DNA of 64,000 nucleotides from an uncultured delta proteobacterium (GTDB taxonomy: Bacteria; Desulfobacterota; Syntrophia; Syntrophales; Smithellaceae), in assembly GCA_963762595.1 (NCBI GenBank), contig CAVXLI010000022.1:52-64051 (forward strand), read 5' to 3'. Positions 1-22,316 of this stretch are shown in pieces (the stretch's first letter is position 1; each line of letters opens with the position of its first letter). Made by a program: the position numbers and the translations under genes. The notes beneath the pieces were generated by a model. That model did no database searches. It had not been told where the DNA came from and saw only the letters and a list, made by a program, of their open reading frames with translations.

Positions 1-160
1 TTTTTCTAGACTAGTTACAGAATAATCAAAACCACCTCATTTGTTACAAAAATACAAACTGAACCAAACCACGGGCATGAACCCCAGAACGAGCTTTAGG
101 AACACTCAGCAGTAAGCTGCGGGGTGTTATGCCCTCCGCTTTGCGTGATAATTCGACCAG

Positions 161-213
161 CAAACTTCAGTCGTAGATGACCTTTAGGTTACGCGCTCCG
201 CTTCTGAAGTTTG
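161..213. repeat. REP-like palindrome with nested 22-bp module
   Basis: CAAACTTCAG...CTGAAGTTTG inverted repeat enclosing GTCGTAGATGACCTTTAGGTTA; related element at 1568-1606 lacks the module. Confidence 0.75.
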
Positions 214-231
214 GGTCTCATTAAAAAATAC

Positions 232-260
232 TTGACTATGAAGACTTTGCAAACAATAAT
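232..260 (+). promoter_or_regulatory. sigma70-like promoter
   Basis: TTGACT-N17-AATAAT upstream of the ORF at 279. Confidence 0.5.
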
Positions 261-278
261 CACACTACAGGAGTGCTT

Positions 279-1175
279 ATGAACGATAGTCTTATTCTTC
301 AGGATACACCCGACCTTGTAAATCCATACATTCTGATCGGCTTGGGCGGCTGGTTGAATGCGGGCGAGGTTGCGACCGGATGCATCGACTTCCTGCGCCG
401 CAAACTTAATGCCCGGAAGTTCGCTCACATTGATTCCCGGGGTTTCCATATCTGGCAGGTCCCGGGCTTTGATCTGGCGCAGGCCATGCGACCCCATGCG
501 GTCATCGAAGAAGGCCTGATCAGGTCGCTTGCCGAGCCCGCCAGTGAATTCTTTTTCTGGAAGAGTGGCGCTGAACATGACCTGATCCTTTTTACAGGCT
601 CTGAACCGAATCTGAGGTGGCCGGAATACGCATCAGCCATTTTGAGTATTGCCAAACGTTATCGGGCGCCAAGAATCTATTCGCTGGGCGGCGTTTACGA
701 CCAGGTCCCCCATACCCGGGAAACGCGGGTCTTTGCCGTGCTGAGCCGTCCGGAGATGAAGAGCGAATTCAAATCGTTTCCATTTCTGAATTACGCGGGG
801 CCGTGCAGTTTCTCCACGATGCTTTTGAACCAGGCCGGCAAGGAGGGTATCGAGGCGGCCGGCATCACGGCCAGAGTCCCGCCGTATATTCAGATTTTTA
901 ACGCAAAAGCATGCTACGATCTTTTGAAAAAGGTGTTCGCCCTTACGCCCTTGAATATCGATTTAAGCGATCTCAAAAAATCCGGGGATAACCTGGTCGA
1001 GATGATGGACAAGTCCTTCAGCCAGAATGAAACCGCTCTGAAACAACTCCGGAAACTGGAAGAAATGTTCGATGCCGCTGTGCTTCAGGAATTCGGTTAT
1101 ACCCCGGGGTCGAACATCGACGAGCTTATGCAGGAAATGCTGAATATGAAAAAGGACGGTCAAAAACTGCACTGA
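279..1175 (+). CDS. PAC2 (proteasome assembly chaperone-like) family protein
   Basis: GGWLNAGEVAT, GSEPNLRW, GGVYDQVPHTR and VPPY motifs typical of PAC2 family; AGGAG RBS. Confidence 0.85.
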   Translation: MNDSLILQDTPDLVNPYILIGLGGWLNAGEVATGCIDFLRRKLNARKFAHIDSRGFHIWQVPGFDLAQAMRPHAVIEEGLIRSLAEPASEFFFWKSGAEHDLILFTGSEPNLRWPEYASAILSIAKRYRAPRIYSLGGVYDQVPHTRETRVFAVLSRPEMKSEFKSFPFLNYAGPCSFSTMLLNQAGKEGIEAAGITARVPPYIQIFNAKACYDLLKKVFALTPLNIDLSDLKKSGDNLVEMMDKSFSQNETALKQLRKLEEMFDAAVLQEFGYTPGSNIDELMQEMLNMKKDGQKLH

Positions 1176-1227
1176 CGCGAGCTTCGGTCCAGGAAGTCCT
1201 CGTTGAATTTGCATTGAATTTGAATTT

Positions 1228-1606
1228 GGGGTCAAATCTTTACTCTTGATATTTGATCTTCAGAAATTTGGCACTTGCTCTATTTATATATAAAAAATAG
1301 AATCGTCCCCTTCTTTTCTCCCTAATCCCCATCCACTTCGCTTCGGGGATAGTTGAAGCCCCTGGTCTTACAGCCAGAGAGCTTCGATACTCAAGGTAGT
1401 TGACAGTTTCTTATTTGCCCGCACATCATGTTGCAAGCAACATGGTGCGCATCGGCACTGTATTCAACTCACAAGCTTCAGTCGCAGATGACCTTTAGGT
1501 TATGCACTTTGTTTCCTAGAGGTGTTACTAATCCCCATCCGCTTCGCTTCGGGGATAGTTCGACTTACAACTTTCAGTTCGCTATGCTTCTGAAAGTTGA
1601 GTCTCA
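1228..1606. repeat. cluster of REP-like hairpins and end motifs
   Basis: GGGGTCAAATCTTTACTCTTGA (1228-1249), AAATAGAATCGTCCCC (1295-1310), 33-bp direct repeat (1322-1354 and 1528-1560, 1 mismatch), hairpin near 1420-1450, 22-bp module at 1481-1502. Confidence 0.8.
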
Positions 1607-1899
1607 CTACATGGTTCAGACGCCGGAGAGCAGACCGCAAATCCTTCACCATACCAGGAATCTTTATAGTCTATCAAAGTTTGATTAAATAGATCTTTTT
1701 CGTGTTTATTATAAACAAACTCGATGCCTTGTAAGTGCACAATTTCATCTTCTTCTCTTGGTTCATCCAGAACCATTGCCAATCTGGGGCCGGTTCAACC
1801 AAAACCTTGCCGAATTAACCGAATGGATTTGGCATTAAAATGTCTAAGTACCTTGACAAGTTCAATTTTCGCTGTTTCTGTTATCGTTATTTCAATCAT
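1582..1899 (-). CDS. HesB/IscA-like selenoprotein (Sec at codon 35, TGA at 1795-1797)
   Basis: Reads MIEITITETAKIEL...IRQGFG-TGA-TGPRLAMVLDEP in one frame with the 1582..1782 ORF; GFG-U-xGP motif; hairpin TGGTTC-TGGAT-GAACCA downstream of the TGA. Confidence 0.88.
1759..1775 (-). promoter_or_regulatory. candidate bacterial SECIS
   Basis: 6-bp perfect stem, loop UGGAU, loop 25 nt after the UGA. Confidence 0.65.
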
Positions 1900-1925
1900 C
1901 ACATTTTCCTTTAAAGTTAGCGTCC

Positions 1926-2012
1926 TGTCATTTCGAGGAGCAAGGCGATGAGAAATCTAAAGATCCCTCACTGCTTTCGGGACATAGATTTCTCCCTTCG
2001 GTCGAAATGACA
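1926..2012. repeat. REP doublet (TGTCATTTCGA...AGAAATCT / AGATTTCT...TCGAAATGACA)
   Basis: long imperfect inverted repeat visible directly in the sequence. Confidence 0.8.
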
Positions 2013-2236
2013 AAAGAAGTGAGATTTTTGTTCATTTCGTAATCTGAGATTAACATATGTCCGCTTTAAAAAAAATCAAGAGTGATGCGTGAAATTAACA
2101 CCTCGTCACTCTTTGTCTTTCATAATAAGAAAAATTTTTCAAAAAAACTTGCAGTTGCCTGCCAACAGGGATAATAATTAGCTGCAAATCAATACAGTAT
2201 CGATATAATCCCATAGGGAGAAAGGACTCTTAAGGC

Positions 2237-2977
2237 ATGAACCAGACTATTGAAGTCATGAAGAACCATAGGAGCATCCGCAGCTTTGTGGATAAGGAAA
2301 TACCGGATGCGATTATCGACGAGCTGATGGCGGTAGCGCAGGCTGCGCCCAACTCCATAAACGGCCAGCAGATAAGCCTGGTCATTGTCCGCGACAAAGA
2401 GAAAAAGCGCCGGATAGCTCAAATCGCCGGTGGCCAGACATGGATTGAGCGGGCGCCGCTGTTCATCCTGTTTGTTGCCGATTTTTACAAGGCAAAACTG
2501 GCAGCCGACAAGGTCGGCAGACCGCTGGTTATTCCCGAGAGTGTTGAGGCCACAATTGCCGTCTCGATCGATGCCGGGATATGCCTGCAGAATATCATTA
2601 CGGCGGCAGAATCCCTTGGCTTGGGGATTGTTCCCATCGGCGGCATTCGCAATGATCCTGCCGCCATGATCGAACTGATGAAGCTACCCGAATATACCTT
2701 CCCCATCAACGGCCTTTGTATAGGCTATCCCGCGGACAGATCACGGCAAAAGCCCAGAATGCCGGTTGCGGCCTTCAGGCATGATGAAGTCTATAACTCT
2801 GCAAAGCTGAAAGCTTTGATAGATGAATATGACGCACTGATGGAACCATATCTGAAAAGCGTGGGCAGGGAAAACGAGATCAACTGGAGTACAAATACAT
2901 TGAATTATTATTCGTTTGTTTACTTCCCCGAGGTTTACCCGATCATGAAGCTGCAGGGGTTCAAAAATGATAAATAA
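2237..2977 (+). CDS. NADPH-dependent nitro/flavin reductase (NfsA/NfrA family)
   Basis: HRSIRSF, AAESLGLGIVPIGGIRN and KPRMP motifs. Confidence 0.9.
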   Translation: MNQTIEVMKNHRSIRSFVDKEIPDAIIDELMAVAQAAPNSINGQQISLVIVRDKEKKRRIAQIAGGQTWIERAPLFILFVADFYKAKLAADKVGRPLVIPESVEATIAVSIDAGICLQNIITAAESLGLGIVPIGGIRNDPAAMIELMKLPEYTFPINGLCIGYPADRSRQKPRMPVAAFRHDEVYNSAKLKALIDEYDALMEPYLKSVGRENEINWSTNTLNYYSFVYFPEVYPIMKLQGFKNDK

Positions 2978-3026
2978 TATTAATTAGGGACGGCTGTCCG
3001 TCTGAGAAGCCAAGGGTAAAAATTAA

Positions 3027-3797
3027 ATGGGGCAATTCATCACTCAGTATACAAAACAAATGATGCGATATTTGGCGGCCATAATGCTTGTTGCCTTTTT
3101 ATCGGGTTGCGCCATGATCGCCCCCGCCCCGATGGATGTGCTTACCTATGATAATCCCAACAAGGCAGCAGCCAACAAGCGGCTGTTTGTCTTCTTGCGC
3201 GGCATGGGAGGGTCTCATCACAGTTTCGAAGAAAAGGGGCTTGTGACCGACGTCTGGGCGCGCGGCTTACCATTCGATATGGTTGCTCCCAATGCTCATT
3301 TTGGCTACTACGGAGACCGCAACCTGATTGTGCGGCTTAAAGAGGATGTGATAGACCCCGCCCGGGCCAAGGGCTATAAAAAAATCTGGCTGGTCGGTGT
3401 TTCAATGGGGGGACTGGGAGCTTTGCTTTATCTCATGGAACGTCCCCAGGACATTGCGGGCGTTTACCTGATCGCTCCATATCTCGGCTCACAATCGTTC
3501 CTTGCCGAAATTGAAGCCGCGGGCGGCGTCCGGCAGTGGAACCCGGGGGCCTACATTGCCGAAGAAGATTGGCAGAGAATGCTGTGGCACTGGATCAAGA
3601 CAACGATTGCCGACAGTCCGGACAAAATAGTTTATTTGGGATACGGTACCGACGATACTTATAAGAGCGGGCCGCAAATACTTGCGCTCCTTTTACAACA
3701 AGACCGCGTCTACATCATTGACGGTGGGCATGACTATAAAACGATCAAAGCCCTGTGGCAAATTTTTCTGGAGAATGATAGTAAATTAAGAAACTAG
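3027..3797 (+). CDS. alpha/beta hydrolase lipoprotein
   Basis: lipobox LSGC, GVSMG nucleophile elbow, C-terminal GGHD; start may be 3060. Confidence 0.8.
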   Translation: MGQFITQYTKQMMRYLAAIMLVAFLSGCAMIAPAPMDVLTYDNPNKAAANKRLFVFLRGMGGSHHSFEEKGLVTDVWARGLPFDMVAPNAHFGYYGDRNLIVRLKEDVIDPARAKGYKKIWLVGVSMGGLGALLYLMERPQDIAGVYLIAPYLGSQSFLAEIEAAGGVRQWNPGAYIAEEDWQRMLWHWIKTTIADSPDKIVYLGYGTDDTYKSGPQILALLLQQDRVYIIDGGHDYKTIKALWQIFLENDSKLRN

Positions 3798-3895
3798 AAT
3801 TTAGGGACAGTTGCCTCTAAGGAAATTGTGATGATTCTATTTTTTCTAGACAAATGGCAGAATAACCAAAACCATCTCATTGAGTAGAGGAACTT

Positions 3896-4447
3896 ATGGA
3901 TCGGGAAACGGCACTGAAAGCCATCAGAGAAAACGTGAAGAATGAAAACCTGATTAAGCATATGCTGGCTGTGGAAGCTATTATGCGGGCGCTTGCCCGG
4001 CGGTTCAAGGAAAACGAAGATGAGTGGGGGCTGGCGGGTCTGCTTCACGATATCGATGTCGAGCTGACTCATGCCGATTTGAAAGTCCACAGCAAGCCCG
4101 GGGCTCAAATGGCAAAAGAGTTGGGCGCAAGTGAAGCGGTCTGTCGTGCAATTCTTGTCCACAACGAAGCGCACGGAGAGCCCTGCATATCGCTCATGGA
4201 TAAAGCCCTCTTTTGTGCCGATCCTTTGACCGGACTCATCACTGCCGGAGCGCTAATTCGTCCGGATAAAAAGCTCGCCTCCGTGGAAGCCAAATCCATT
4301 CGAAAGCGGTTCAAAGAGGAGCGCTTTGCGGCAGGCGCGAATCGGGCGCAGATAGCAAAGTGCAGTGAAATCGGTTTGGAATTGGATGACTTTATTGCGT
4401 TAGGACTTGATGCGATGAAGGGAGTAGCAGGAGATTTGGGACTGTAA
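3896..4447 (+). CDS. HD-domain (HDIG-type) metal-dependent phosphohydrolase
   Basis: KHMLAVE, GLLHDID, DPLTGLI and FAAGANR motifs. Confidence 0.88.
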   Translation: MDRETALKAIRENVKNENLIKHMLAVEAIMRALARRFKENEDEWGLAGLLHDIDVELTHADLKVHSKPGAQMAKELGASEAVCRAILVHNEAHGEPCISLMDKALFCADPLTGLITAGALIRPDKKLASVEAKSIRKRFKEERFAAGANRAQIAKCSEIGLELDDFIALGLDAMKGVAGDLGL

Positions 4448-4526
4448 CAACCTGCTTGAAAAAGACTGAATTGTTATCTCTTTTAGTAGGATTTGACGTT
4501 CAGCGAACCATTGAGCCAACTATTAT

Positions 4527-5270: not shown

Positions 5271-5371
5271 TCTGCCGTACCTCGATTTTCAATATATTCC
5301 CCTGTTCAATTACAGGGGAATAGGCCGAGGGAAATAAGTCAACAGAGATAGTGCTTTAATATTATTTTTCG

Positions 5372-5429
5372 TTTACAAATTATATCAATATAGTTACATA
5401 ACTAACGAGCTAGTACAACGGTTCTATTT
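5372..5429 (-). repeat. 58-bp dispersed repeat copy 1 with extended -10 promoter
   Basis: 53/58 identical to 7471-7528; minus strand reads AAATAGAACCG...TGnTATAAT. Confidence 0.85.
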
Positions 5430-5477
5430 TAAAAAAGGACAAACTGGAATCGGCCTACGCCGGTATAGCGGTGGCGT

Positions 5478-7397
5478 CTAGATGCCCGCTGCCGCGGCGT
5501 AACCCTCATGAATGGCATCCATGATTGTGCGCGGCTTAGAGCAATCGCCGATCACCAGCATCTGTGGAAATTTCCCCTCCAGTAAAGAGATTATACCGTT
5601 ATCCACGGTGGGCGCAGGCGAAAGAATTACCGTATCCGCAGTGATGTGTTCACTCGCGCCTGAATCACTGACAATTACTCCTTCCTTGTCAATACTGACG
5701 ATGGTTGCGCTCTCCCTGATCTTCACGCCGCTTGCCGCAAGAGTCTGCAAAAAAGAATTCCGGGAAGCAGGGCCCAGCTCATGTGCCAGACGGTTTTTGC
5801 CCGACATGCGCACGAGGGTAACGTCTTTACCCTGCCGGGCAAGCAACTCAGCGGTTTCACAACCCACCCTTCCGCCTCCGACTACAACCATCTTTTGTCC
5901 GACGGGCTTGTTTCCTGCTAAAACATCGCGCGCCAAAAACACATGCGGCAAATCGGCACCGGCAATAGCCGGGCGCTCCGTAATCGACCCGGTAGCGACG
6001 ATAACAACGTCCGCGTGCAGATCAATTATTTCTTGCGCCGTGGGGGCATGACCGAGCTGCACATCGATCCCTTCTTTATATAACTGCGCACTGAGATAAC
6101 GGATAGTTGTCTGGAGCTCATCCTTGCCCGGCGGCACCGCTGCGGTGATGAGCTGTCCTCCCAGCGCTTTATCTTTTTCGTATAACGTCACCTTGTGTCC
6201 CTTCAGAGCGGCAACGCGTGCCGCTTCCATGCCGCCCGGCCCGCCGCCGATGACAACTACTTTTTTGGGTTTTTTTGCCGGCAGAAGCTTTTCCGCCTCG
6301 CGGCCCAGTTCGGCATTGACGGAACAGGCAATCGCTTTTCCCTTCAGCAGTGAATCCATACAATTACAGCAGGCAATGCACATCCTGATGTCGTCATAGC
6401 GGCCTTCTTTGGCTTTGACCAATATTTGCGGATCGGTAAGGAAAGGGCGCCCCAGCGCGATGAAATCGGCCCGGCCTTGCGCCAGTACCGTATCGGCAAA
6501 CCTGGGATCGACAATGCGGCCGGCGACAATCACGGGAACACTTACATTCTTTTTGATTTCTTCGGCAAAAGGCACGAGGCAACCGCGAGGCAGCCAACCC
6601 GGCTGGCAAGTCCATTGCCCTCTCTCATAAATGCCTGCCGAGACATCCACACTGTCAACTCCGGCATCCTGCAAGGCGCGGGCTATTACCTTTGTTTGTT
6701 CGATATCCAGACCGTCCGGCACGAATTCTTTGGCGCTGATCCGGAACATAATGGGAAAATCGGAACCTAACTTCTGTCTTGCCTTCTTAACGATATCCAG
6801 CGCGAAGCGCATCCGTTTCTCCAGACTGCCGCCGTATTTATCGGTGCGTTTATTGGTATAGCCGGAGAGAAACTGGCAGATCAGATAGCCGTGAGCGCCG
6901 TGGAACTCCACGGCATCAAAGCCCGCTTTTTTTGCGAGCAACGCGCCCGTGGCAAATTTTTCCACCAGGTCGTCCGCTTCCTCGGTTGTCAAGGCACGGG
7001 GCTCCACTTTCAAAAATTTACAGGCTATCGCCGAAGGGGCAACCGGCTCTCCCATGTGCTTCGGTCTCTGCCGGCCGGCGTGGTGTAACTGGATTGCCGC
7101 CTTTACGCCGTGTTTGTGGATGACAGCGGCGAGCTTGCTCAATCCTTCCAGGTAAGTATCGTCAAAAATTGCCGGTTCTCTGGTTTCCGATTCCCCGCCG
7201 CGCGCCACCGCTGTATTTTCCACGATGATCAAACCCATGCCGCCGCGGGCGCGTTCCTCATAATAAGCAAGAAGCCGGTCCGACACATAGCCATTCTCAT
7301 TGGCGAGCTGGGTATACATGGGTGCCATGATGACCCTGTTGGCGAGCGTCATGCTTCCAATTTTTGCCGGCTGAAAAAGATGATTCAATTTATCCAC
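5478..7397 (-). CDS. NADH:flavin oxidoreductase (old yellow enzyme, FadH/BaiH-like) with FAD-binding domain
   Basis: NRVIMAPM, HGAHGYLICQF, NKRTDKYGGS, CIACCNC Fe-S motif, two GGG dinucleotide-binding motifs. Confidence 0.92.
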   Translation of the reverse strand: MDKLNHLFQPAKIGSMTLANRVIMAPMYTQLANENGYVSDRLLAYYEERARGGMGLIIVENTAVARGGESETREPAIFDDTYLEGLSKLAAVIHKHGVKAAIQLHHAGRQRPKHMGEPVAPSAIACKFLKVEPRALTTEEADDLVEKFATGALLAKKAGFDAVEFHGAHGYLICQFLSGYTNKRTDKYGGSLEKRMRFALDIVKKARQKLGSDFPIMFRISAKEFVPDGLDIEQTKVIARALQDAGVDSVDVSAGIYERGQWTCQPGWLPRGCLVPFAEEIKKNVSVPVIVAGRIVDPRFADTVLAQGRADFIALGRPFLTDPQILVKAKEGRYDDIRMCIACCNCMDSLLKGKAIACSVNAELGREAEKLLPAKKPKKVVVIGGGPGGMEAARVAALKGHKVTLYEKDKALGGQLITAAVPPGKDELQTTIRYLSAQLYKEGIDVQLGHAPTAQEIIDLHADVVIVATGSITERPAIAGADLPHVFLARDVLAGNKPVGQKMVVVGGGRVGCETAELLARQGKDVTLVRMSGKNRLAHELGPASRNSFLQTLAASGVKIRESATIVSIDKEGVIVSDSGASEHITADTVILSPAPTVDNGIISLLEGKFPQMLVIGDCSKPRTIMDAIHEGYAAAAGI

Positions 7398-7470
7398 GGT
7401 TGCCTCCTAAAATTCACTTTCGCGGGCCAGAGCTTCGCGATTGATATTGCCGCTTTCCTGAAATTATTCT

Positions 7471-7528
7471 TTTACAAATTATACCAAAAGAGCTACATAA
7501 CTAACGAGTTAGTACAACGGTTCTATTT
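7471..7528 (-). repeat. 58-bp dispersed repeat copy 2 with extended -10 promoter
   Basis: near-identical to 5372-5429. Confidence 0.85.
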
Positions 7529-7573
7529 AATTTGCAAGATGCTTCCCCCGGAAAAACGGACACCTTCTAATTA

Positions 7574-8317
7574 TTACCCCTGGCTCGTCGGCATAATCAT
7601 GATATCGGCATTATTCACATTATCCGGCTGGTTTAACGCATAGAGCACTGCACGGGCGATATCATCGGCTTTCAAGGCTTTCACGTTTTGAAATCTCGGC
7701 CCGATCACAGCCAAAACTTCCTTATCCGTAATAGCCCTGCCGAGCTCTGTGGCCACCATTCCCGGCTCAATAACCGTCACGCGAATATTGCTGGAGGGGC
7801 CAAGCTCCATGCGCATCCCCTCGGAAAGTGCCGAGACAGCGTATTTCGTGGCGCAGTATACCGCGGAACCCGGCAACACTTTTCTTCCGGCCACCGACGA
7901 GATATTTACGATGTGGCCTGAAGCCTGTTTGATCATGCCGGGCAGCACGGCGCCGATGCAAAAGAGCACACCCTTGATATTCACATCCACCATACGTTCC
8001 CATTCTTCCTCATGAAGGTTTTTCATCAGCGACAGAGGCATGACTCCCGCGTTGTTGATGAGGATATCAATATTGCCGAAAGCCTTCAGGCATTCATCAA
8101 CAGCTTTTTTGACCTCGCTCTTTTTCGTTACATCAGCGCATGTGACAAGCGCCGTTCCTCCCCCCTTCTGAATTTCAGCTTTTAGAGTTTCCAGACGATC
8201 ACTTCTTCTGGCCATCAGGGCAACCTTTACTTTTTGTGCGGCCAGTACCCTTGCCGTTGCTTCTCCAATGCCGCTTGACGCGCCGGTAATTAAAGCCGTT
8301 TTGCCGTTCAATTCCAT
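7574..8317 (-). CDS. SDR family oxidoreductase
   Basis: [17 protein letters not shown]. Confidence 0.93.
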
Positions 8318-8407
8318 GTTACACCTCTCAATTCTTTAATAAGTTGTATTAATTTTATATTGTATTATCAGATTTTCTTGCATTACTCCACCATACTTGA
8401 CGCAATT

Positions 8408-8460
8408 AGTGGAGATCCCTCCGGTCGCAGATGACCTTGAGGTTACAGGAGCCAGAGGCT
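8408..8460 (+). repeat. AGTGGAG...GAGGCT palindromic repeat, partial copy with 22-bp module
   Basis: matches reverse complement of 15192-15244. Confidence 0.8.
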
Positions 8461-8579
8461 CCCTTGGAATTCTGGTTTGCTTATCAGAAGATATTGAGGA
8501 TTAGATATTTACTCTTGACACGTTGCAAGGTTGGATGTTGTACTTGCGGTGATTGCGGAATATACAAAAAGGATATGCC

Positions 8580-10075: not shown

Positions 10076-10226
10076 GGGTAGGCTCTAAATCCTTTTTTTG
10101 GCGTATGCAAAATTTTAATTAACATTTTCTGATAGCAGACGGTTTGTCAAGAAATATAGTTGATATTAGCTAAGGACATGCCCTATAATTAATTGATTTT
10201 TGAGAGTCTGCTTAAGGGAGGAAACT

Positions 10227-10702
10227 ATGAAGACATTACAGCTGTTGGAGTATAGTCAATTTTTAAGGCACAAATATCTGGAAACTTTAAGCAAGCTTCC
10301 CTGGGAGGAAGTTAGTCAAGGATCGAGGCGCCAGTTTCCCTTCCCTGAGAGACATCTTTCTGCATATGGTCTTTGTGGTGGATGCCTATATTAATTATGT
10401 ATTGCAAGGCAATAACAATTATCCGAACGTCAACTATAACGAATACGACAGCATCGAGAAAATCACGAAATATCTGGAAGAGGTGGAATCCAGAGCCAAC
10501 GCCAACTTAAGCAAAATGACGCCGGAAGAACTGGCGAAATTGAGAACGAAAGACGGTGAAATTACCGTTAGGATGTTGCTCGACTTTTTCCAGGAAGAAA
10601 CGCATCATCGGGGAGAACTTTTAGGCGTTGTTATGGCAAATGGATGTTGAGCCTCCCCACACGGGATTTATTCAATACACGCGGTCGCAAAAGCGCAAAT
10701 AA
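10227..10702 (+). CDS. DinB family protein (two apparent frameshifts)
   Basis: joined frames give ...RGASFPSLRDIFLH...EETHHRGELxALLWQMDVEPP; GGGAGG RBS. Confidence 0.75.
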
Positions 10703-12257: not shown

Positions 12258-12405
12258 GAACGGCGGACGGGTCAAGTCTTTGCATGGCTCATCTGGCGGT
12301 GAAAATTATTTTATAAAAAGATAGCTTCAATTTGATTCCGTGCAAACTGGGAGCATCCTGATTCGGATTTCAGCTGGCTTAGCCAATATAAAGGTGATCA
12401 TTATT

Positions 12406-15112: not shown

Positions 15113-15244
15113 TCCCGCGGCTTGGAAGCCCCCGGCTCCAGCCGGGGGGAGGAATGCGCCGTAACCCGCGGGAGGTCGCGTTATTACAGGTAGCCTCCGG
15201 CTCCTGTAACCTCAAGGTCATCTGCGACCGGAGGGGGCTCCACT
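15111..15244 (-). repeat. long palindromic dispersed repeat, full copy
   Basis: homologous to 52369-52474, 15896-16008 and 8408-8460. Confidence 0.85.
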
Positions 15245-15328
15245 GATGAGCAAAAAAATCTGAGAACAAAGGCGCACTATTTTTTTAAAAAATAATATAA
15301 AAACAAAAAACCGGAAGAATTTTTTGAC

Positions 15329-15375
15329 GGTGCTTCAATTTAATTCTTGAGCTGCTAAGTGTAAGGTGATATTTT
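15329..15375 (+). promoter_or_regulatory. duplicated promoter module copy 1
   Basis: 30 bp identical to 16788-16817; TTGAGC-N17-TATTTT with extended TG. Confidence 0.7.
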
Positions 15376-15423
15376 TAACATTCAAACGTCATATATATTT
15401 GCAGGAAAGGTCATTATAGTAAT

Positions 15424-15831
15424 ATGAAATATTTCACTGCTATCGAAGCTAAACAATTCGCCCAGAAATGGCTGCCGGCCTGGTCCGGAAACAATCCCGA
15501 GTTACTGGTAAGTTTCTATTCGGAAGACGCCTTTTACCTCGACCCGGGCGTTCCCGAGGGTGTAAAAGGAAAACCGGAGTTGCTGGCCCACTTCCGCAAG
15601 CTTCTGGCCAATAACCCTAATTGGGTCTGGTCACAGATCGAAGGCATTCCGCTTGCGGATGGTTTTCTGAATAAGTGGCTGGCGAAAATTCCGGTAGGCC
15701 CTGTTACGTTAGAAATCGTCGGCGTGTGCCTGGTGCAACTGGACAGCGCAGGTAAGATCCGCCGTAACGAGGTGTACTTCGACCGCACACAACTCCTTGC
15801 CGAAATTGCCAAGTTCAGGCAGCGAAAATAG
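15424..15831 (+). CDS. SnoaL/NTF2-like protein
   Basis: FYSEDAFYLDP, GKIRRNEVYFD. Confidence 0.85.
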   Translation: MKYFTAIEAKQFAQKWLPAWSGNNPELLVSFYSEDAFYLDPGVPEGVKGKPELLAHFRKLLANNPNWVWSQIEGIPLADGFLNKWLAKIPVGPVTLEIVGVCLVQLDSAGKIRRNEVYFDRTQLLAEIAKFRQRK

Positions 15832-15895
15832 TGTTGGGGCAATACAGAGAACACCTGACTCCTATTCCTGTTACTCTCATCGCTTAGAACAATTT

Positions 15896-16008
15896 CACCC
15901 CGCTGCAGAAAGTCCCCGTCTCCCGCCGTGGGTTGAATGCTTTCTGCAAGCCGCGGGATGTCGCGTTTATGAAAAGGAACCTCCGGCTCCTACCAGAGGG
16001 GCTCCACT
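15896..16008 (-). repeat. diverged copy of the long palindromic repeat
   Basis: AGTGGAGCCCC...GCCGGAGG...ACGCGACATCCCGCGG on the minus strand. Confidence 0.7.
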
Positions 16009-16011
16009 GTT

Positions 16012-16638
16012 TCACTTAGGAGAAATTCTTTTTCCGAATTTCTCGATTTCGTCTCCGGTTTTTTTCAGTCCTTTCCCAACCTCTTCAGCCATCACAGAGC
16101 CTTTTTCCTTCAATTTCAGCGCCAGCTCTTCAGATTTTTTTATAACTTCTTTTGTACCTGTTTCAACTTTCTGGCCGGCCCAGGCAAAGCCTCTCTCCAA
16201 ATCTTTAGTGGCCGAATCAAGGGCATCGCCGGCTTTTACTTTCTGTTTCTTCGCCCATGCTTCCATTGATTTAGTATGGGAATCGGATGCCAATGCATGA
16301 TAGGCGCGGGCAAAGGCTTCATCAAGTTTTTTTACCGAGGTTACCGCTCCTTTATTCACATCCTCAGACAGTTTGTTCAATTCGCGAGCCGATGCTGCCA
16401 GCGCCTCTTTTCCCGTAACGGACGCTTTCTCCGCCTCGGCTTTCATGTATGCTGAGGCCTTTTGAATCTGTTCAGCTGCGGATTTCAAATTTTTATCCAA
16501 GTAGTCTTTTTTTGCCTTCTGAAAAGTCTGTTCAATTGAGGATTGTGATTCTGAGCCGGCAACGGCCGCCTGCGGCAAAATTCCCGTTACGATCAATGCA
16601 AAAACAAGAACAACGATGACAAGATTTAAGCGATACAT
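16012..16638 (-). CDS. secreted helical hypothetical protein
   Basis: signal peptide, Ala/Lys/Glu-rich, AGGAG RBS. Confidence 0.75.
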   Translation of the reverse strand: MYRLNLVIVVLVFALIVTGILPQAAVAGSESQSSIEQTFQKAKKDYLDKNLKSAAEQIQKASAYMKAEAEKASVTGKEALAASARELNKLSEDVNKGAVTSVKKLDEAFARAYHALASDSHTKSMEAWAKKQKVKAGDALDSATKDLERGFAWAGQKVETGTKEVIKKSEELALKLKEKGSVMAEEVGKGLKKTGDEIEKFGKRISPK

Positions 16639-16787
16639 GGTTTTTCTCCTTTCTAAATATTGGATATAAACGAATTTATTTATTCATATACGTTTGTCAA
16701 AGGGTATTTTTTTATCGCCCCTGGAAATTAGGATTAAATCTTTGCATGATTCATCTATTATCGGTGAAAAGCATTAATATAATCCAG

Positions 16788-16834
16788 GGTGCTTCAATTT
16801 AATTCTTGAGCTGCTAAATGGAAGATGATATTCC
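16788..16834 (+). promoter_or_regulatory. duplicated promoter module copy 2
   Basis: GGTGCTTCAATTTAATTCTTGAGCTGCTAA; TTGAGC-N17-TATTCC. Confidence 0.65.
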
Positions 16835-16925
16835 ATGACCTGATCCAAGGCGATAATTTTTGCCGCCGGTAATGTCGGGTTAGATTCATGACGGCATTAA
16901 AGGTTGCAGCATAAGGAGTAGATGT

Positions 16926-17924: not shown

Positions 17925-18111
17925 AAAGATGTCGGCATCAAATGAAGTACGCCGCGGCATGATAATAGAGGGAGAGGCTTGAAAAATAAGTTTTCGCTAA
18001 CACGACACCAGCTCTGTAACTTTTTTTATTTATATCCATCTGGTTTGTGTTAACTTATAGTTTGTTTTTACTTATCTTTTAAATTACAGTACGCATGTCA
18101 GGAGGAATTTG

Positions 18112-18990
18112 ATGGATCAGCTTAAGCCTTATCGTTCTTTTGTGAGCTATATCGACCGCAGCAGAGAATACTACGCTGCCCAGGGCTATGATAAACCATA
18201 CGCATGGCCGCACTATGACAATGTTCCCTTTACTCCCCTGCGAAAGCCGCTCTCGGAGTGCCGTGTCGGATTGGTAACGACCGCGGGTAAGCCAAAGCCT
18301 GTCAACCCAATGGAGAACATTATGTATCTTCGGGAGATGTACGCTGAACAGGCAATTCCATCACCGCCATCTCTCTTTACCGATGATTTGTTTTGGGATA
18401 AGAAAGCTACCCACACGAAAGATGTTGACAGCTTTTTACCCGTGAACCGCCTGGCGGAGTATGCCAGAAACGGACGCATTGGATCGGCTTCACCCCGTTT
18501 CTATGGTGTGCCCACTGATTACAGTCAGGGTAGGACGATGGAGCGTTATGGTCCACAGATCCTTAAATGGTGTCGCGAGGACGGCCTCGATGCTGTGCTC
18601 CTTTCTGCGCTGTGACCGGTTTGCCACCAGACCGTGAGTCTGGTCGCCCGTCACCTGGAGGAGAATGGCATTCCAACAGTCATTATGGGTAGTGCGCGGG
18701 ACATAGTGGAAGAGTGCGGTGTTGCGCGTTTCGTATTTACCGATTTTCCCCTGGGGAATCCCTGTGGAAAACCGTGGGATGCCGAGATGCAAAGCTCGAT
18801 CGTAGGGATTGCGCTTGATCTTCTTGAGCGGGCCTGGATGCCGCGCACCACAATTCAGACGCTTTATCAATGGAACAACGATGAATGGCGGGAAGCCTTC
18901 ATGAGGGTTGACGCTGTCAATCGCGAAGCCCTTGCCCGTGAGGGAGAAGCGCGCCGCGAATTTCAGGCCCAATTAAAGAATAATCAGTAA
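18112..18990 (+). CDS. PrdB/GrdB-like (glycine/sarcosine/betaine/proline reductase selenoprotein B family) selenoprotein, TGA at 18613-18615
   Basis: ORFs 18109..18615 and 18634..18990 share a frame: DAVLLSAL-U-PVCHQTVSLVARHLEENGIPTV (UxxC); hairpin ACCAGAC-CGTGA-GTCTGGT follows. Confidence 0.92.
18626..18644 (+). promoter_or_regulatory. candidate bacterial SECIS
   Basis: 7-bp perfect stem, loop CGUGA, loop 17 nt after the UGA. Confidence 0.75.
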
Positions 18991-19112
18991 TCATGTATGG
19001 CAAAAAAAATACGGGTGATCGGTGTAACCCTTGCTGACAGTTTCAGAAATGCAGAGGAGGGTGTTATAGTGAATTCACCAGTTAATGACAATTGTAAGGA
19101 AGGAAAAAAAGA

Positions 19113-20504
19113 ATGCGACCCATTCAGGAAATCTTAGAAGCCAAAAGTATTGCGGTTATCGGAGCATCGAGGGATCAGGGGAAGCCGGGGGCGCAGCTCC
19201 TTAGAGTTCTGAAAGAAGTGGAATATCAGGGTAGTGTTGCCGGTGTAAATCCTCAAGGTGGAGAAGTATTTGGAACCACTTTATATCGGAATCTGGAGCA
19301 AATTCCTTTCAACGTTGATCTGGCGGTTTTGCTTATCCCCCCTCGGTTTGTTCCGGAAGCACTGCGGGAGTGTGCCCGTAAAGGTGTCAAGGGGGTGGTG
19401 ATCTCCGCGGAGGGCTTTGCGGAAACGGGACCAGAGGGGGCAAAGTATCAGGAAGAAGCAAGTGCTATCTTAAAATCCACAGGCATGAGGGGATTTGGAC
19501 CCAATACCCTGGGCGTGATCAATACAGCAACCAAACTGACCACGTCTTATTTTGCCAATGCCCAAATGCTGATGCCCGGATCCATTGGATTCGCTGCGCA
19601 GTCCGGGATTTTTGTGGGGGCGCTTCTGAGGTATTTGAGTTCATTCGATGGACTGCATCTCTCTAAAGGTATCGGTCTGGGAAATAAAGTGGATGTGAAC
19701 GAATCGGATGCCCTTTCCTACCTGATGGATGACGAGCAAACCAAAATCATCGGCATGTATCTGGAGGATGTCAAAGATGGACGCTTGTTTACGGAAAATC
19801 TCAAGAAGGCTGTGGCTAAAAAGCCTGTGCTCATCGTCAAGAGCGGGCGGACTCAGGCGGGCGCCAGAGCTACGGCATCTCATACGGCAAGTCTCGCGGT
19901 CGAAGACGCCGTTTTTGACGGAGTTATCCGTCAGGCCGGAGCCATCCGCCTGACCGGGATCGATGATTTCATCCGCACTCTAACAGGGTTTTTGAATATG
20001 CCCCTTCCCCGAGGAGACCGGCTGGCTTTTGTTACCTACAGCGGGGCACAGGCTATTATGAGCATCGATGCGGCCGTTGAACATGGGCTGCAAGTGGCCC
20101 GATTGGGAGAAACTACTCAGGCAAGAATTGCCGGGGTAATCGCAACCCCTTCCAAGACCAGAAACCCGATTGACATTTTTCCCGATTGGCTGTCTCACGG
20201 ATATGAAAAGACGATGTCGGAGATAATGAAAGCTCTCCTGGATGATCAGGGTGTGGACGGTATTGTTTTTATTTCTTTTGCTGATGCCACGCCTGAAGTG
20301 TATCAGCCAATGGCTGATATTCTCAAAGGGGACCGTCGTAAGCCGGTCTTTTTTTCCCTTTTAGGGGATAATAAAGAAAAAGAAGCTTGTCAAAATTTTC
20401 TGAATGGAAATGGTCTTCCCTGTTATGATTTCCCGGAATATGCCGTTCGTGTTTTTGCCCATATGCGGCAATATGCCAGGATCAAAGAAAGACGATCAGG
20501 ATAA
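19113..20504 (+). CDS. acyl-CoA synthetase (NDP-forming) alpha subunit / CoA-binding protein
   Basis: IAVIGAS, GPNTLG, QSG, LGNKVD, SHTASL phospho-His, NPID; no ATP-grasp domain. Confidence 0.88.
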   Translation: MRPIQEILEAKSIAVIGASRDQGKPGAQLLRVLKEVEYQGSVAGVNPQGGEVFGTTLYRNLEQIPFNVDLAVLLIPPRFVPEALRECARKGVKGVVISAEGFAETGPEGAKYQEEASAILKSTGMRGFGPNTLGVINTATKLTTSYFANAQMLMPGSIGFAAQSGIFVGALLRYLSSFDGLHLSKGIGLGNKVDVNESDALSYLMDDEQTKIIGMYLEDVKDGRLFTENLKKAVAKKPVLIVKSGRTQAGARATASHTASLAVEDAVFDGVIRQAGAIRLTGIDDFIRTLTGFLNMPLPRGDRLAFVTYSGAQAIMSIDAAVEHGLQVARLGETTQARIAGVIATPSKTRNPIDIFPDWLSHGYEKTMSEIMKALLDDQGVDGIVFISFADATPEVYQPMADILKGDRRKPVFFSLLGDNKEKEACQNFLNGNGLPCYDFPEYAVRVFAHMRQYARIKERRSG

Positions 20505-21314
20505 ACCAGGTAAAAGCTTTACTCCATTCTCCCAAAAAATTTTTTTATAAAAATCCTCTGAGAGATTCAATTTGTGCAGATAGTTGATTTCATCCTCACG
20601 GGGTAAAAAAATATTCGGGAAATCAGATCCGTAGAGAATTCTATCCCTGTATTTTTCCAGCAGACTTGTATCGAGATTAAAGCTCCATGGTGCCTGGGGC
20701 CAAAAGGTAAAAGTTGTATCAAGGTAAAGGTTGGGGTATTCATCGAGAAGCTGTATGAATTCCCAATATTCCAAACCGCCCATGTGTGCAATATTGGCAG
20801 GAAGGTTTGGGTATCGCTTTATGAGTTTGCTGAAGCGTTTGATACCGACAAATTCATTTCCAACTGGACCGGTTCCCACATGAAGCAGGAGCCGTTTTTT
20901 CTTATTGATCACCATCTCATAGAGTGGAAAAAGCCTTTCATCATCCGGAGAGATTTGTTGCACCAGGTGATGAAGCTTTATCCCGACAACCTGTTGCAGA
21001 GATAGCATTTCCTCTGCGTAGCTGAGCGCGTTTTCATCATCGGGATGATATGCGGCAAAGCAATAAAGGTTGGCAAATTCCTTGAGAATGTCTCTGTTCC
21101 AGTTGTTGAGCCATTCTGCGATTCCCTTTTTATGGGCATAGTTTGAATAAACAATATAATGAATATTATGTGCCGCAAGGTATTCTATGCATTGTTTATA
21201 ATAGTATTTATATAGGATTGTAATGCCATATTGTTTATCAAATGTTTTCCATAAAGCATCAAACATATTGTCCGGGAATAGGTGAACATGGAAATCAATC
21301 ATTTTATTTGGCAA
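20496..21314 (-). CDS. amidohydrolase_2 family protein
   Basis: IDFHVH, GIKLH, IAHMG, YGSDFP. Confidence 0.88.
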   Translation of the reverse strand: MPNKMIDFHVHLFPDNMFDALWKTFDKQYGITILYKYYYKQCIEYLAAHNIHYIVYSNYAHKKGIAEWLNNWNRDILKEFANLYCFAAYHPDDENALSYAEEMLSLQQVVGIKLHHLVQQISPDDERLFPLYEMVINKKKRLLLHVGTGPVGNEFVGIKRFSKLIKRYPNLPANIAHMGGLEYWEFIQLLDEYPNLYLDTTFTFWPQAPWSFNLDTSLLEKYRDRILYGSDFPNIFLPREDEINYLHKLNLSEDFYKKIFWENGVKLLPGLS

Positions 21315-21433
21315 TATTTTTTCTATGGAAACCTCCTGTCGTTAAAAAACTCACAACTCCATACGAACACAGTTATTCTATATGGGTTGTAAATACAATC
21401 CATTAATTTTTTTGTCAAGCTGCTACTGAATTC

Positions 21434-21535
21434 ATAAGTTGGTCATGTCCCCGATAACTGGAAGGGGGAACGGGTCAAGTCTTTGCATGGCTCATCTTCA
21501 GAGTGGAAATAATATGGACAATGGTTCTATTTAAT
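21434..21535. repeat. cluster of end motifs
   Basis: TAAGTTGGTCATGTCCCC; 28 bp (21470-21497) identical to 12267-12294; ATGGTTCTATTTA. Confidence 0.75.
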
Positions 21536-21596
21536 TATAATACAGCATGGTATTTGTAAAACATGTCTTAAAGATATTTAATGAACGGAGGGGCTT

Positions 21597-22257
21597 ATGT
21601 TGAAGAAAGTATTTTTGAGTGTCGCCATTATATTTTGTTTTGTTTCTTCTGCAATTGCTGCAGAACTAAGCCCGATTAAACTTCTTCCGCCCGATATGAA
21701 AGGCGGGAAATCCCTGATGCAATCGTTGCAGGAGCGAAAAACATCCCGGTCATTCAGCACTAAAAAACTGCCGATGGAAGTGCTTTCCAATCTGATGTGG
21801 GCGGCCTGTGGCATCAACCGGCCGGACAGCGGCAAACGCACGGCGCCGTCCGCCCGCAACTGGCAGGAAATCGACGTCTATGTCGCTATGGAAGAAGGCC
21901 TTTATCTTTATAACGCGAAAGCTCATGTGCTCGATCCTGTGTTGAAAAAAGATCTGCGCAAGGACACGACCGTTTTCCTTCAACCGTCAAGAAGCTCGGT
22001 AGCCCACGCACCGCTGCAATTGATCTATGTGGCGGACTATGCGAAGATGAGCTTTGACACGAACGATGAGAATAAAAAGTTCTATTCGTCTGCGGATACC
22101 GGTTTCATTGCCCAGAATGTTTATCTTTATTGCGCTTCCGAAGGACTGGCCACGGTGTGTCCGCGGCATGGTCGATAGGGAGGCTCTGGCCAAAGATATG
22201 AAACTGCGCGACGAACAAAAAATTATTCTGGTGCAGGCGGTAGGCTATCCGCAATGA
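21597..22257 (+). CDS. SagB/ThcOx-type nitroreductase family protein with signal peptide (one frameshift near 22160)
   Basis: RKTSRSF, LMWAACG, RTAPSA, QNVYL; C-terminus continues in ORF 22054..22257 (QAVGYP). Confidence 0.85.
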
Positions 22258-22316
22258 CAAAAAAATTCACCTAGGCCTAATTTAACGGCAGGTGCTCCCA
22301 TCCGTTAATTAAATCT

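Follow-up and report, generated by a model that had tools for sequence, protein, structure and literature searches.

Transposase-end repeats at gene boundaries of a hypervariable hotspot in Smithellaceae-like genomes

An array of unrelated single genes

The window analysed here is a stretch of 64,000 nucleotides whose first base lies 51 nt to the right of the start of contig C22 in G000, a 2.19-Mb assembly (38 contigs, 58% complete) that served as the reference for comparisons. Its first 22 kb hold ~21 genes of unrelated Pfam families, 7 of them on the opposite strand. The sequence-only reading had described an array of unrelated genes in mixed orientation with no integrase or transposase in view, and indeed none of the 30 ORFs scanned for domains carries an integrase or transposase domain. 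This part of the window belongs to a hypervariable chromosomal hotspot that extends to ~43 kb, is adjoined by no integrase, and occurs in a clade of Smithellaceae-like genomes. Two short motifs recur in the array: motif A (GGGTCAARTCTTT, here TIR-A) and motif B (AAATAGAAYCRT), whose reverse complement is TIR-B. The features are as follows, in window coordinates unless marked C22.

1–58 (+): module M1 copy 1, upstream of the PAC2 gene
C22:37–52: TIR-B core GGGGACGATTCTATTT of M1 copy 1, ending at window base 1
111–230: dispersed repeat R1, of a family found genome-wide (~25 BLAST hits across many contigs)
273–1175 (+): PAC2-family gene, conserved backbone
1228–1249 (+): TIR-A, left-end type (GGGGTCAAATCTTTACTCTTGA)
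1292–1312 (−): TIR-B copy, the sole minus-strand TIR-B in the region
1322–1612: dispersed repeats, R2 at 1322–1354 and 1522–1612, R1 fragment at 1462–1515
2237–3797 (+): nitroreductase (2237–2977) and alpha/beta hydrolase (3027–3797), variable; elsewhere in G010 and G009
3827–3881 (+): module M1 copy 2, immediately 5′ of the HD gene; left edge with a degenerate TIR-B
3896–4447 (+): HD-domain gene, backbone
5353–5429 (+): repeat P5a, with a TIR-B remnant at 5415–5429 (+)
5411–7509 (−): polymorphic unit with an FMN/FAD oxidoreductase gene (5478–7397)
7452–7528 (+): repeat P5b, 84% identical to P5a, with a TIR-B remnant at 7514–7528 (+)
8405–8464: dispersed repeat R3, reverse complement of 15188–15247, genome-wide family
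8493–8518 (+): weak left-end-type TIR-A-like stretch, 77% identical to 1224–1249
12267–12338 (+): TIR-A, then shortened module M2, between Lnt and SDR2
15113–15250: dispersed repeats R4 and R3, an insertion relative to G013
15329–15373 (+): 3′ part of module M2, upstream of a SnoaL-like gene
15898–16012: repeat R5, a variant of the R3/R4 family
16731–16832 (+): full module M2 (TIR-A with 2 mismatches, an extended −10-like stretch and a leader), upstream of hydrolase 2
21470–21532 (+): TIR-A (21470–21497) and TIR-B remnant (21518–21532), upstream of nitroreductase 2

R1 at 111–230 is missing at the same site in G013 and in one contig of the wetland metagenome X1, and a second R5 copy adjoins a 175-aa tyrosine recombinase gene on contig C11.

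Relatives differ by single genes

Along this one chromosomal stretch, ORF-size units, mostly redox, detoxification and hydrolase genes, have been gained, lost and reordered, and individual genes come and go between close relatives. Comparison of G000 with six regions of five relatives establishes a mosaic at the level of the ORF, with 33 homology blocks, all single genes, that run from ribosome-binding site through stop codon and stand in differing order. Left block edges lie 8–13 nt upstream of the start codon (PAC2 3/3, HD 4/5, DinB 4/5), and right edges fall at the stop codon (PAC2 3/3 within 4 nt; HD 5/5). In contrast, the 17-kb flank at window positions 43–60 kb is colinear, with blocks of 2–7.5 kb at ~90% identity. 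Duplicated 5′ gene fragments flank inserted genes, specifically 47 codons of HD in G011 and ~40 codons of DinB in G013 and G010, and relatives carry the duplicated HD fragments along with M1. These duplications indicate ordinary homologous recombination.

Two motif families are concentrated in the array

Both main motif families are genuine: their copies greatly exceed chance and cluster in this region. Exact GGGTCAARTCTTT occurs 3 times in the window, where 0.02 would be expected and none of 100 shuffles has as many as 3; these copies, all within 1–23 kb, are the only three in the assembly. TIR-B with at most one mismatch occurs there 7 times (expected, 0.88; a count of 7 is attained in none of 100 shuffles), and 5 of the 12 exact genome copies of AAATAGAAYCRT lie within 1–23 kb. 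The motif positions first reported were correct, with GGGGTCAAATCTTTACTCTTGA at 1228, ATTTACTCTTGACA at 8507, identical copies of a 28-mer at 12267 and 21470, and AAATAGAAYCRT at 1295 (+) and at 5418, 7517 and 21521 (−); additional copies of AAATAGAAYCRT lie at 3831 (−) and at C22:41–52, just left of the window. Two other proposed repeats fared less well. ACACCTGACTCC, at 15851, has no second copy in the genome and is not confirmed as a repeat. Nor is the GGGAC/GTCC class, which is mixed and only ~2-fold enriched (8 copies in the 4.1 kb of intergenic DNA; genome mean, 0.85 per kb); some of its members resemble degenerate TIR starts and others plain hairpins. Longer shared modules (M1, P5 and M2), missed in the sequence-only reading, surround the motifs.

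The TIR copies have uniform polarity irrespective of gene orientation, 9 of 10 in the window being on the plus strand, including the two beside the minus-strand oxidoreductase gene. The exception belongs to a perfect 21-nt inverted TIR-B pair that flanks the PAC2 gene in G000 (C22:35–55, +; C22:1343–1363, −). In the other counts the plus strand carries 18 of 19 M1 rows, 9/9 of M2, 18 of 20 TIR-B copies (≤2 mismatches, outside ORFs) and 12/12 of TIR-A (≤1 mismatch), counts that are not independent in that copies in relatives are related by descent. M1 has multiplied locally: its matches are confined to this region in G013 (6/6), G009 (4/4) and G011 (2/2), and there are none in G002 or G006. On the left M1 has a sharp boundary, where the TIR has its GGGG end; on the right its edge is ragged.

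The motifs are ends of TIRYT transposase genes

The sequence-only reading suggested a likeness to the ends of Y1/HUH transposase genes, which proved apt, as both motifs flank Y1_Tnp genes in relatives. Specifically, TIR-A is a 24-nt inverted repeat (513–536, +; 1523–1546, −) around a 320-aa Y1_Tnp+Bac_DnaA_C gene in L024, a genome of the genus; the protein has the HYH motif. In another genome of the genus (L042), TIR-A precedes a broken copy of the transposase gene. TIR-B inverted repeats, ~750 nt apart, flank Y1_Tnp ORFs of 231–236 aa in five genomes, one from the genus and four from other genera (L030, L031, L032, L033, L040). Both motifs are thus terminal inverted repeats (TIRs) of "TIRYT" transposase genes. 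Of 151 genomes of the order, 60 contain TIR-B (≤1 mismatch), and reversed-pattern controls give 0–2 matches per genome; among 15 genomes of the genus, 9 contain TIR-A (23 matches in all, 0–5 per genome), and its control gives none. A classical RAYT with GTAG palindromes, found in one genome of the genus (L041), is a separate family.

TIRYTs are a published but barely studied transposase class (subclass 2.1 of Quentin et al. 2018, PMC6006769), and their TIRtrons and TIR repeat families were described by Di Nocera et al. (2013, PMC3733652). In the portions of these papers drawn on here, TIRtrons are, as in our genomes, Y1/HUH genes between long inverted repeats that start with GGGGWSAS, one family has a Bac_DnaA_C tail, and single, paired and clustered TIR copies are moderately abundant elsewhere in the genome. 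Those portions do not link TIRs to variable gene arrays, uniform polarity or TIR-bounded gene units, all of which are seen here, and the copies here are few and concentrated in one hotspot.

Some breakpoints coincide with motifs

Gene order is not conserved across relatives, and part of the proposal that genes are gained and lost at the motifs stands: some breakpoints do fall on them, but most ORF-block edges have no motif, and only 8–9 of 21 intergenic regions carry one. Block edges at 3828, 12338, 16719 and 21463 lie at or within ~12 nt of a module edge. The hydrolase block shared with G009 stops at 3828; homology with G013 stops at 12338, where the downstream gene is SDR2 in G000 and a beta-eliminating lyase in G013, and again at 21463, next to the TIR-A at 21470. 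In addition, a PNPOx unit is 95% identical over 474 nt between G013 and G011, with different neighbours, and the homology spans one TIR-A core to the next, so that one gene is bounded by motifs in two contexts. Finally, an X1 contig (a single Logan contig of depth ~4) lacks the oxidoreductase gene and joins 5410 to 7510, a deletion at a motif whose joint lies inside 19 nt common to P5a and P5b and containing the TIR-B remnant. The 2-kb bin 6001–8000, which covers much of this unit, has a GC content of 0.53, against 0.43–0.50 in the other bins of 1–22 kb.

Metagenome-assembled genomes can be chimeric at repeats, and the apparent shuffling could come from joining strains in this way. C22 does begin inside M1, G000 is incomplete and fragmented, and short-read assemblies are broken by repeats. 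This explanation is nevertheless very improbable, given that nine further genomes have similar arrays, two of them on contigs of 871 kb and 378 kb (6-contig assemblies), and that the flanking 17 kb is colinear. Moreover, the 5410/7510 joint shares only 19 nt; assuming a Logan word length of 31, it could be assembled only from words that span it and occur in no other form than the joined one.

Promoter function may explain part of the spread

A different reading takes the shared sequences mainly as promoter or operator modules of a stress or detoxification regulon, re-used as "mobile promoters"; the mosaic would then reflect the usual gain and loss of genes at a horizontal-transfer hotspot, and any resemblance to TIRs would be incidental to function. 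In the M2-type copies compared, the TIR is followed by an extended −10 (TGATATAAT or a close variant), and P5, which is promoter-like on its minus strand outside the TIR-B remnant, has a predicted extended −10 (TGGTATAAT) and a 14-nt palindrome before the oxidoreductase gene. A P5-like module lies upstream of a 276-aa ORF on contig C28, and TIRtron left ends themselves have a −35-like TTGACA directly after the TIR. The variable genes of relatives include catalase-peroxidase, a Fur-family regulator, Cu/Zn superoxide dismutase, flavodoxin and FMN reductase. In P5, however, the TIR remnants face away from the gene downstream of them, and TIR polarity is independent of how the genes are oriented. 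Inspection of M1 reveals no convincing sigma-70 hexamers, and a consensus promoter scan found no site in M1 or M2; within P5a, the scan did find two overlapping sites on the minus strand (5388 to 5361 and 5388 to 5359). The copies are also 85–95% identical over 75–90 nt and have coding fragments attached, which shows DNA copying and not convergence. Re-use of highly similar promoter sequences before unrelated genes is published (PMC3575422), but relative to the cases in the part of that paper drawn on here, our modules have a transposon end at their start, have multiplied inside a single locus only and lie at structural breakpoints. We consider the regulatory reading improbable as a whole, although M2 and P5 have good extended −10 elements, and selection for promoter activity could account for some of their spread.

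Source of the repeats and catalyst of exchange

The sequence-only reading proposed that an enzyme encoded elsewhere may have built the array; the likeness of the motifs was borne out, the building by that enzyme was not. In its fullest form, a TIRYT encoded elsewhere or supplied occasionally by a mobile element would cut one strand at the outer ends of co-oriented TIR cores, releasing circles of gene plus TIR that reinsert at another TIR, in an integron-like single-strand capture. In favour of this are the genuine TIRYT ends, the uniform polarity irrespective of gene orientation, the sharp left and ragged right edges of M1, and crossovers within cores of 13–19 nt; Y1 enzymes of IS200/IS605 act on same-strand ends. 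Likewise, solo or paired TIR-B copies lie between consecutive unrelated genes in two other genera (5/5 on one strand in L037; 5 dimers in L036). Against this, PF01797 has no match in three array-bearing genomes, G009 (95% complete), G011 (98%) and G000 (58%), a minority of junctions carry motifs, and the gene-fragment duplications better fit homologous recombination. G002 and G008 differ in gene content although their copies of the region have no credible TIR, so the repeats are not needed for variability. The published TIRYT descriptions (PMC3733652, PMC6006769), in the portions drawn on here, show activity for no TIRYT. We regard such capture as unlikely.

With modest confidence, we favour recombination between co-oriented repeats seeded by TIRYT elements. 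In one subclade, the spacers hold locally multiplied modules M1, M2 and P5 whose left edges are solo TIRs of two TIRYT element families. Recombination between two direct-oriented copies would remove the intervening DNA, probably as a circle, and the released piece could recombine with any other copy, or with the 5′-end of a homologous gene, and so reinsert elsewhere. TIRYT elements would be the source of the repeats and not the engine, and host recombination acting on short repeats would be the present-day catalyst. The junctions without motifs and the variability of G002 and G008 count against this reading too, and the two best junctions share stretches of 19 and ~13 nt, which is short for RecA-dependent recombination. 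Leftover transposase-end sequences at many junctions give a hint, short of proof, of a new way of gene capture.

Relation to known gene-exchange systems

Like integron cassette arrays, the array has unrelated single-ORF units in a row with very short leaders, repeated sites of one polarity between units, and presence/absence variation among relatives. In contrast to integrons, it has no IntI gene at or near it, its sites are not attC-like palindromes and are missing at most junctions, and 7 of ~21 genes are on the other strand. REP/REPIN systems with their RAYTs are similar in that short extragenic repeats are associated with, and flank as an inverted pair, a Y1 gene that is single-copy and looks domesticated; here, though, palindromes tagged with GTAG or CGTC are absent and the copies number far fewer than 100. 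In neisserial intergenic mosaic and minimal mobile elements and the pdif modules of Acinetobacter plasmids, as these are generally described, gene-sized units also lie between short repeated sites and, as proposed here, are exchanged by host or trans-acting recombination with no dedicated gene in the unit; the repeats, enzymes (host homologous recombination or XerC/D) and hosts are different.

Gene content of the array

The first 22.3 kb of the window hold about 21 genes, seven of them on the minus strand, and their Pfam families are unrelated: PAC2, two nitroreductases, two alpha/beta hydrolases, HD, PagL, an FMN/FAD oxidoreductase, two SDRs, Dus, DinB, an Lnt-like protein, patatin, and SnoaL-like, GRDB-like, CoA-binding and amidohydrolase proteins, together with ORFs that match no family. 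As the sequence-only reading had stated, no integrase or transposase is in view; none of 30 scanned window ORFs carries a recombinase or transposase domain. An Rfam scan of 1-24 kb (E up to 1) and a tRNA scan of the window each returned zero matches. The parent assembly (G000) comprises 2.19 Mb in 38 contigs and is 58% complete; the window corresponds to C22:52-64051.

Two genes are broken in the window. The DinB-family gene (10200-10650) is read as two overlapping ORFs (10200-10394 and 10366-10650) and is a single ORF of 149-177 aa in relatives; one base is missing at 10314 in one contig from the wetland metagenome run X1, and the split may be a frameshift or an assembly error. The Amidohydro_1 gene (22808-24234) lies in three ORFs, its equivalent in the relative G013 is one ORF of 543 aa, and the window copy is probably a pseudogene or carries sequencing errors. 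The HD-domain protein (3896-4447) has homologues with 60-77% amino-acid identity at many loci titled Dehalococcoidia or Chloroflexota (L061-L113), which suggests movement between phyla.

Repeated motifs and longer modules

Every motif string listed by the sequence-only reading is present at its position, and the strings differ in standing. Motif A, GGGTCAARTCTTT, has three exact copies in the window, where chance would give 0.02, and these are all the exact copies in the genome. Motif B, AAATAGAAYCRT, is found in reverse complement with at most one mismatch seven times in the window (0.88 expected); five of its 12 exact genome copies fall within 1-23 kb, with one more 1-12 nt to the left of the window. 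ACACCTGACTCC, proposed as a shared motif, occurs once in the genome and was rejected as a repeat. The GGGAC/GTCC motifs were likewise rejected as one family; they are a mixed class, enriched only about twofold in intergenic DNA. Outside the array, and still within the variable part of the window, the core of TIR-B (ACGATTCTTTTT) has one-mismatch matches at 38666-38677 (+) and 39904-39915 (+), 1.2 kb apart.

Three longer shared modules, M1, M2 and P5, contain the motifs, which are terminal inverted repeats (TIRs; see below):

Repeat modules and dispersed repeats of the window
1-58 and 3827-3881: M1, about 75 nt
5353-5429 and 7452-7528: P5, 77 nt
16731-16832 (full), 12267-12338 and 15329-15373 (both partial): M2, about 90 nt
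111-230, 1322-1612, 8405-8464, 15113-15250 and 15898-16012: dispersed repeats, present on many contigs

The dispersed repeats are ordinary small repeats, spread genome-wide and set apart from M1, M2 and P5. One of them, R5 (15898-16012), has a second copy, 88% identical, at G000:C11:122720-122831, 76 nt beyond the 3' end of a gene (C11:122907-123380) for a 175-aa tyrosine recombinase that consists of the catalytic domain alone; the same pairing is found in G009:C2. A palindromic element bounded by GTCATTTCGA...TCGAAATGAC lies at about 1929-2013 (depth bins 1335-2668). In the four wetland metagenomes its contigs reach a summed depth of 38-168, compared with about 1-10 for other bins, and numerous distinct loose ends start at 1976-1986 and 2013-2018. 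The element resembles a repeat common to numerous organisms in the samples.

The motifs are ends of TIRYT elements

The likeness of these motifs to the ends of Y1 transposase genes, suggested by the sequence-only reading, proved correct: TIR-A and TIR-B flank Y1_Tnp genes in relatives (loci L024, L030-L033 and L040). PF01797 has no match in the 58%-complete G000 genome and matches in 6 of 15 genomes of the genus. At L024, inverted 24-nt repeats, 513-536(+) and 1523-1546(-), enclose a 320-aa protein that combines Y1_Tnp and Bac_DnaA_C domains; these repeats match motif A at 22 of 24 positions. At L042, a TIR-A repeat precedes a broken gene of this type. TIR-B, the reverse complement of motif B in its extended form GGGGACGRTTCTATTT, was detected in 60 of the 151 genomes sampled from the order, in up to 15 copies each (reversed-pattern control, 0-2). 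It flanks 231-236-aa Y1_Tnp ORFs as inverted copies about 750 nt apart in three other genera (L030-L033) and in the window's own (L040).

A TIR-flanked TIRYT gene, or TIRtron, is a published architecture with a DnaA-like tail in one subgroup and the TIR consensus GGGGWSAS (PMC3733652, PMC6006769). The starts of TIR-A (GGGGTCAA) and TIR-B (GGGGACGG) each fit this consensus at 7 of 8 positions, and that of a third TIRYT family (GGGGACAG, L023) at all eight. Two translated TIRYT proteins (L024 564-1526 and L040 1153-1848) have HYH (in L024) and HLH motifs plus a Y-x-x-x-NP stretch. Y1_Tnp, HUH and catalytic tyrosine occur together between inverted repeats at L024, L030-L033 and L040, and the additional single, paired or clustered TIR copies away from the gene that characterize TIRtrons are found here as well. 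The available text of the two papers catalogues the repeats, gives TIRYTs, which are orphan Y1/HUH proteins, no function or role and links them to no gene arrays.

Other Y1 elements occur in the genus. A 157-aa Y1_Tnp gene between GTAG-tagged palindromes (L041, G007:C50) is a classical RAYT/REP unit, which brings the kinds of Y1 element in the genus to at least four, and classical tnpA-tnpB pairs are found elsewhere in G012 and G013. By BLAST, neither these pairs, the L023 type nor the L041 RAYT has a significant match to the window modules. M1 was also considered as a copy of a TIRtron left end and rejected outside its TIR of about 20 nt, its interior being unlike L040 and L030-L033.

Close relatives exchange ORF-sized units

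To compare the array with its relatives, we searched 30 of them at the DNA level, fetched homologous regions from nine genomes and clustered their ORFs. Genes of the window recur across the genus in sets and orders that differ, and gene order is not conserved. A recurring backbone of PAC2, HD, orf8553, DinB, patatin and SnoaL is interspersed with numerous singletons. Among 30 variable genes of relatives scanned with Pfam are a catalase-peroxidase, a Fur-family regulator, Cu/Zn superoxide dismutase, flavodoxin, FMN reductase, CMD, HpaB, PNPOx and a TetR regulator, with AbiEii and DruA toward the left flank; no recombinase domain was found among them. On the left flank of the hotspot in G013 and G009 (L025, L026, L011), the M1 arrays are directly bordered by genes of defence type (AbiEii, DruA and a HerA/DUF87-like ATPase), and thus the hotspot may extend into a defence island.

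Between G000 and six regions of the five closest relatives, the 33 DNA homology blocks correspond to single genes. On the left they begin 8-13 nt upstream of the start codon (PAC2 3/3, HD 4/5, DinB 4/5), right edges fall at or within a few nucleotides of the stop (PAC2 3/3, HD 5/5), and the flanks beyond are unrelated. Such exact edges, from ribosome-binding site to stop, are unusual and demand explanation under any mechanism. By comparison, window 43-60 kb, with its intergenic DNA, aligns at about 90% identity with G011, G013 and G009 in blocks 2-7.5 kb long that are interrupted at small dispersed repeats only; the mosaic is therefore a property of the region and not of the genome. An assembly artefact is a highly improbable source of these patterns.

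Repeats share one polarity

All M1 matches in G013 (6), G009 (4) and G011 (2) lie in the hotspot region, and G002 and G006 have none. Eighteen of 19 M1 copies and all nine M2 copies are on the plus strand of the array; M1 precedes 13 different genes and M2 eight, both beginning 5-80 nt past the preceding stop. M1 has a sharp left edge, where the TIR has its GGGG end, and a ragged right edge, with some copies including the first 4 to 47 codons of HD. Across all 11 regions, TIR-B (at most two mismatches, outside ORFs) is on the plus strand in 18 of 20 cases and TIR-A (at most one mismatch) in 12 of 12; at its loosest thresholds the scan is noisy, with 72 real matches against 22 in the control. 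Nine of the ten TIR copies in the window are on the plus strand, including two remnants that flank the minus-strand oxidoreductase gene, which shows that TIR polarity is independent of gene orientation. In 80 loci around HD homologues (1.18 Mb), the two TIR patterns gave 19 matches against 2 for reversed controls; 18 come from loci with Smithellaceae, Syntrophaceae, Smithella or deltaproteobacterium in the title, all but one of these 18 on the HD strand. Elsewhere in G000, solo TIR-B copies have no consistent orientation relative to neighbouring ORFs, as judged by naive ORF calls.

The sole minus-strand copy (1292-1312) forms a perfect 21-nt inverted pair with a TIR-B at C22:35-55, bracketing PAC2 in an arrangement that resembles a TIRtron with its transposase replaced. 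Because PAC2 occupies the same place in all relatives, this may be a coincidence of two solo ends.

Breakpoints at repeats, and how units might move

The expectation that gain and loss breakpoints map to the motifs was borne out at several junctions and not at the majority of block edges, which are motif-less; TIR-A or TIR-B occurs in 8-9 of the 21 intergenic regions. Since block edges are gene edges, the null for a coincidence of breakpoint and motif is the motif-bearing share of junctions. When Logan contigs from four wetland metagenomes were aligned to window 1-20 kb, one 546-nt X1 contig (depth 4.1, one mismatch per side) joined 5410 to 7510, omitting 2,099 nt that make up the oxidoreductase gene, with a TIR-B remnant inside the 19 nt common to both sides; another X1 contig retains the gene. 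The 2-kb bin 6001-8000, which covers much of the skipped segment, has a GC content of 0.53, against 0.43-0.50 in the other bins of 1-22 kb. G013 and G011 share, amid differing neighbours, a PNPOx gene unit with 95% identity across 474 nt, the homology running from the GGGG of one TIR-A core to about 13 nt into the next. G000 and G013 cease to be homologous at 21463, shortly before the TIR-A that begins at 21470, and at the right end of M2 (12338); beyond these points the two genomes carry different genes. Position 3828, where the M1 TIR starts, is the end of the hydrolase block, and the orf16012 block ends at 16719, 12 nt before a TIR-A. The joints 58->266, 1354->1609 and 15969->15197 and the 9299/14381 row were discounted as cassette evidence, as they involve dispersed repeats or contain unknown letters.

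TIR ends are thus co-oriented at junctions where close relatives exchange single ORFs, and two junctions lie inside repeat cores. On balance we favour a gene-shuffling hotspot in which TIRYT ends would have seeded the spacers, the seeded repeats would have multiplied locally, and co-oriented repeats would act as crossover points through which ORF-sized units are lost and re-enter. If the repeats serve only as substrates of recombination, the region offers a clear natural example of transposon debris organising a gene-shuffling hotspot.

An enzyme-driven, integron-like capture is rather unlikely. Here TIRYT, possibly supplied in trans, would recombine single strands at co-oriented TIR cores, excising ORF-sized units as circles and reinserting them at other cores. 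The short crossover cores and uniform polarity are in keeping with it, as are similar TIR-B strings between consecutive unrelated genes in two other genera: L037 (G015:C15:7500-17000) has five solo TIR-B copies on one strand near DUF3800, Lgt, PD-(D/E)XK nuclease and Schlafen-like helicase genes, and L036 (G071:C36:34000-39574) has five TIR dimers of about 93 nt, with flagellin and type I restriction S subunit genes nearby. However, the scarcity of TIRs at intergenic regions and block edges argues against it, and gene content differs even in G002 and G008, which are without a credible TIR in the region. Nor was PF01797 found in the array-bearing G009 (95% complete) and G011 (98% complete), or PF00589 in or beside the hotspot of G013, G009 and G011. 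Inserted genes are flanked by duplicated 5' fragments of HD and DinB, which also speaks against a dedicated system; duplications of this type would result if a circle underwent one homologous crossover. Were capture true, it would be a second gene-cassette route in bacteria, mechanistically unrelated to integrons, and catalysis by TIRYT would provide both a function for the family and a non-integron cassette system.

Promoter-like sequences in the modules

The modules probably double as promoters, judging from an extended -10 (TGATATAAT or a near variant) downstream of the TIR in M2-type copies, a 14-nt palindrome plus TGGTATAAT on the minus strand of P5 ahead of the oxidoreductase gene, and TTGACA directly after the TIR in TIRtron left ends. 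Contig C28 has a P5-like module ahead of a 276-aa ORF, and its palindrome is a different one. A sigma-70/terminator consensus scan gave counts close to the shuffle expectation; it listed no site in M1 or M2 and two overlapping minus-strand promoter-like sites inside P5a. A purely regulatory reading of the shared sequences is nonetheless improbable: the P5 TIR remnants face away from the gene, and so a promoter role cannot account for TIR polarity. M1 as the ancestral HD promoter was rejected, as HD lacks an upstream M1 in G002, G006, G007 and G008.

Comparison with known systems

An integron has IntI next to its array, whereas none of the 30 window ORFs has a recombinase domain; on the left the array is truncated by the contig end. 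Integron boundaries each carry an attC-like palindrome; here motifs mark 8-9 of 21, and their cores are not palindromic. Integron cassettes are co-oriented, whereas seven of about 21 genes here are on the minus strand, although relatives' arrays are mostly co-oriented. REP/RAYT systems (REPIN) have a high-copy 20-40-nt palindrome tagged with GTAG/CGTC; TIR-A and TIR-B lack the tag, their cores have no visible palindrome, and exact copies in the genome number 3 for TIR-A and 12 for TIR-B. IS200/IS605 elements carry tnpA, with or without tnpB, between hairpin ends, and G000 is without a PF01797 match. Re-used (mobile) promoters place near-identical upstream sequence ahead of non-homologous genes, and the same arrangement is found here, with putative promoter activity.
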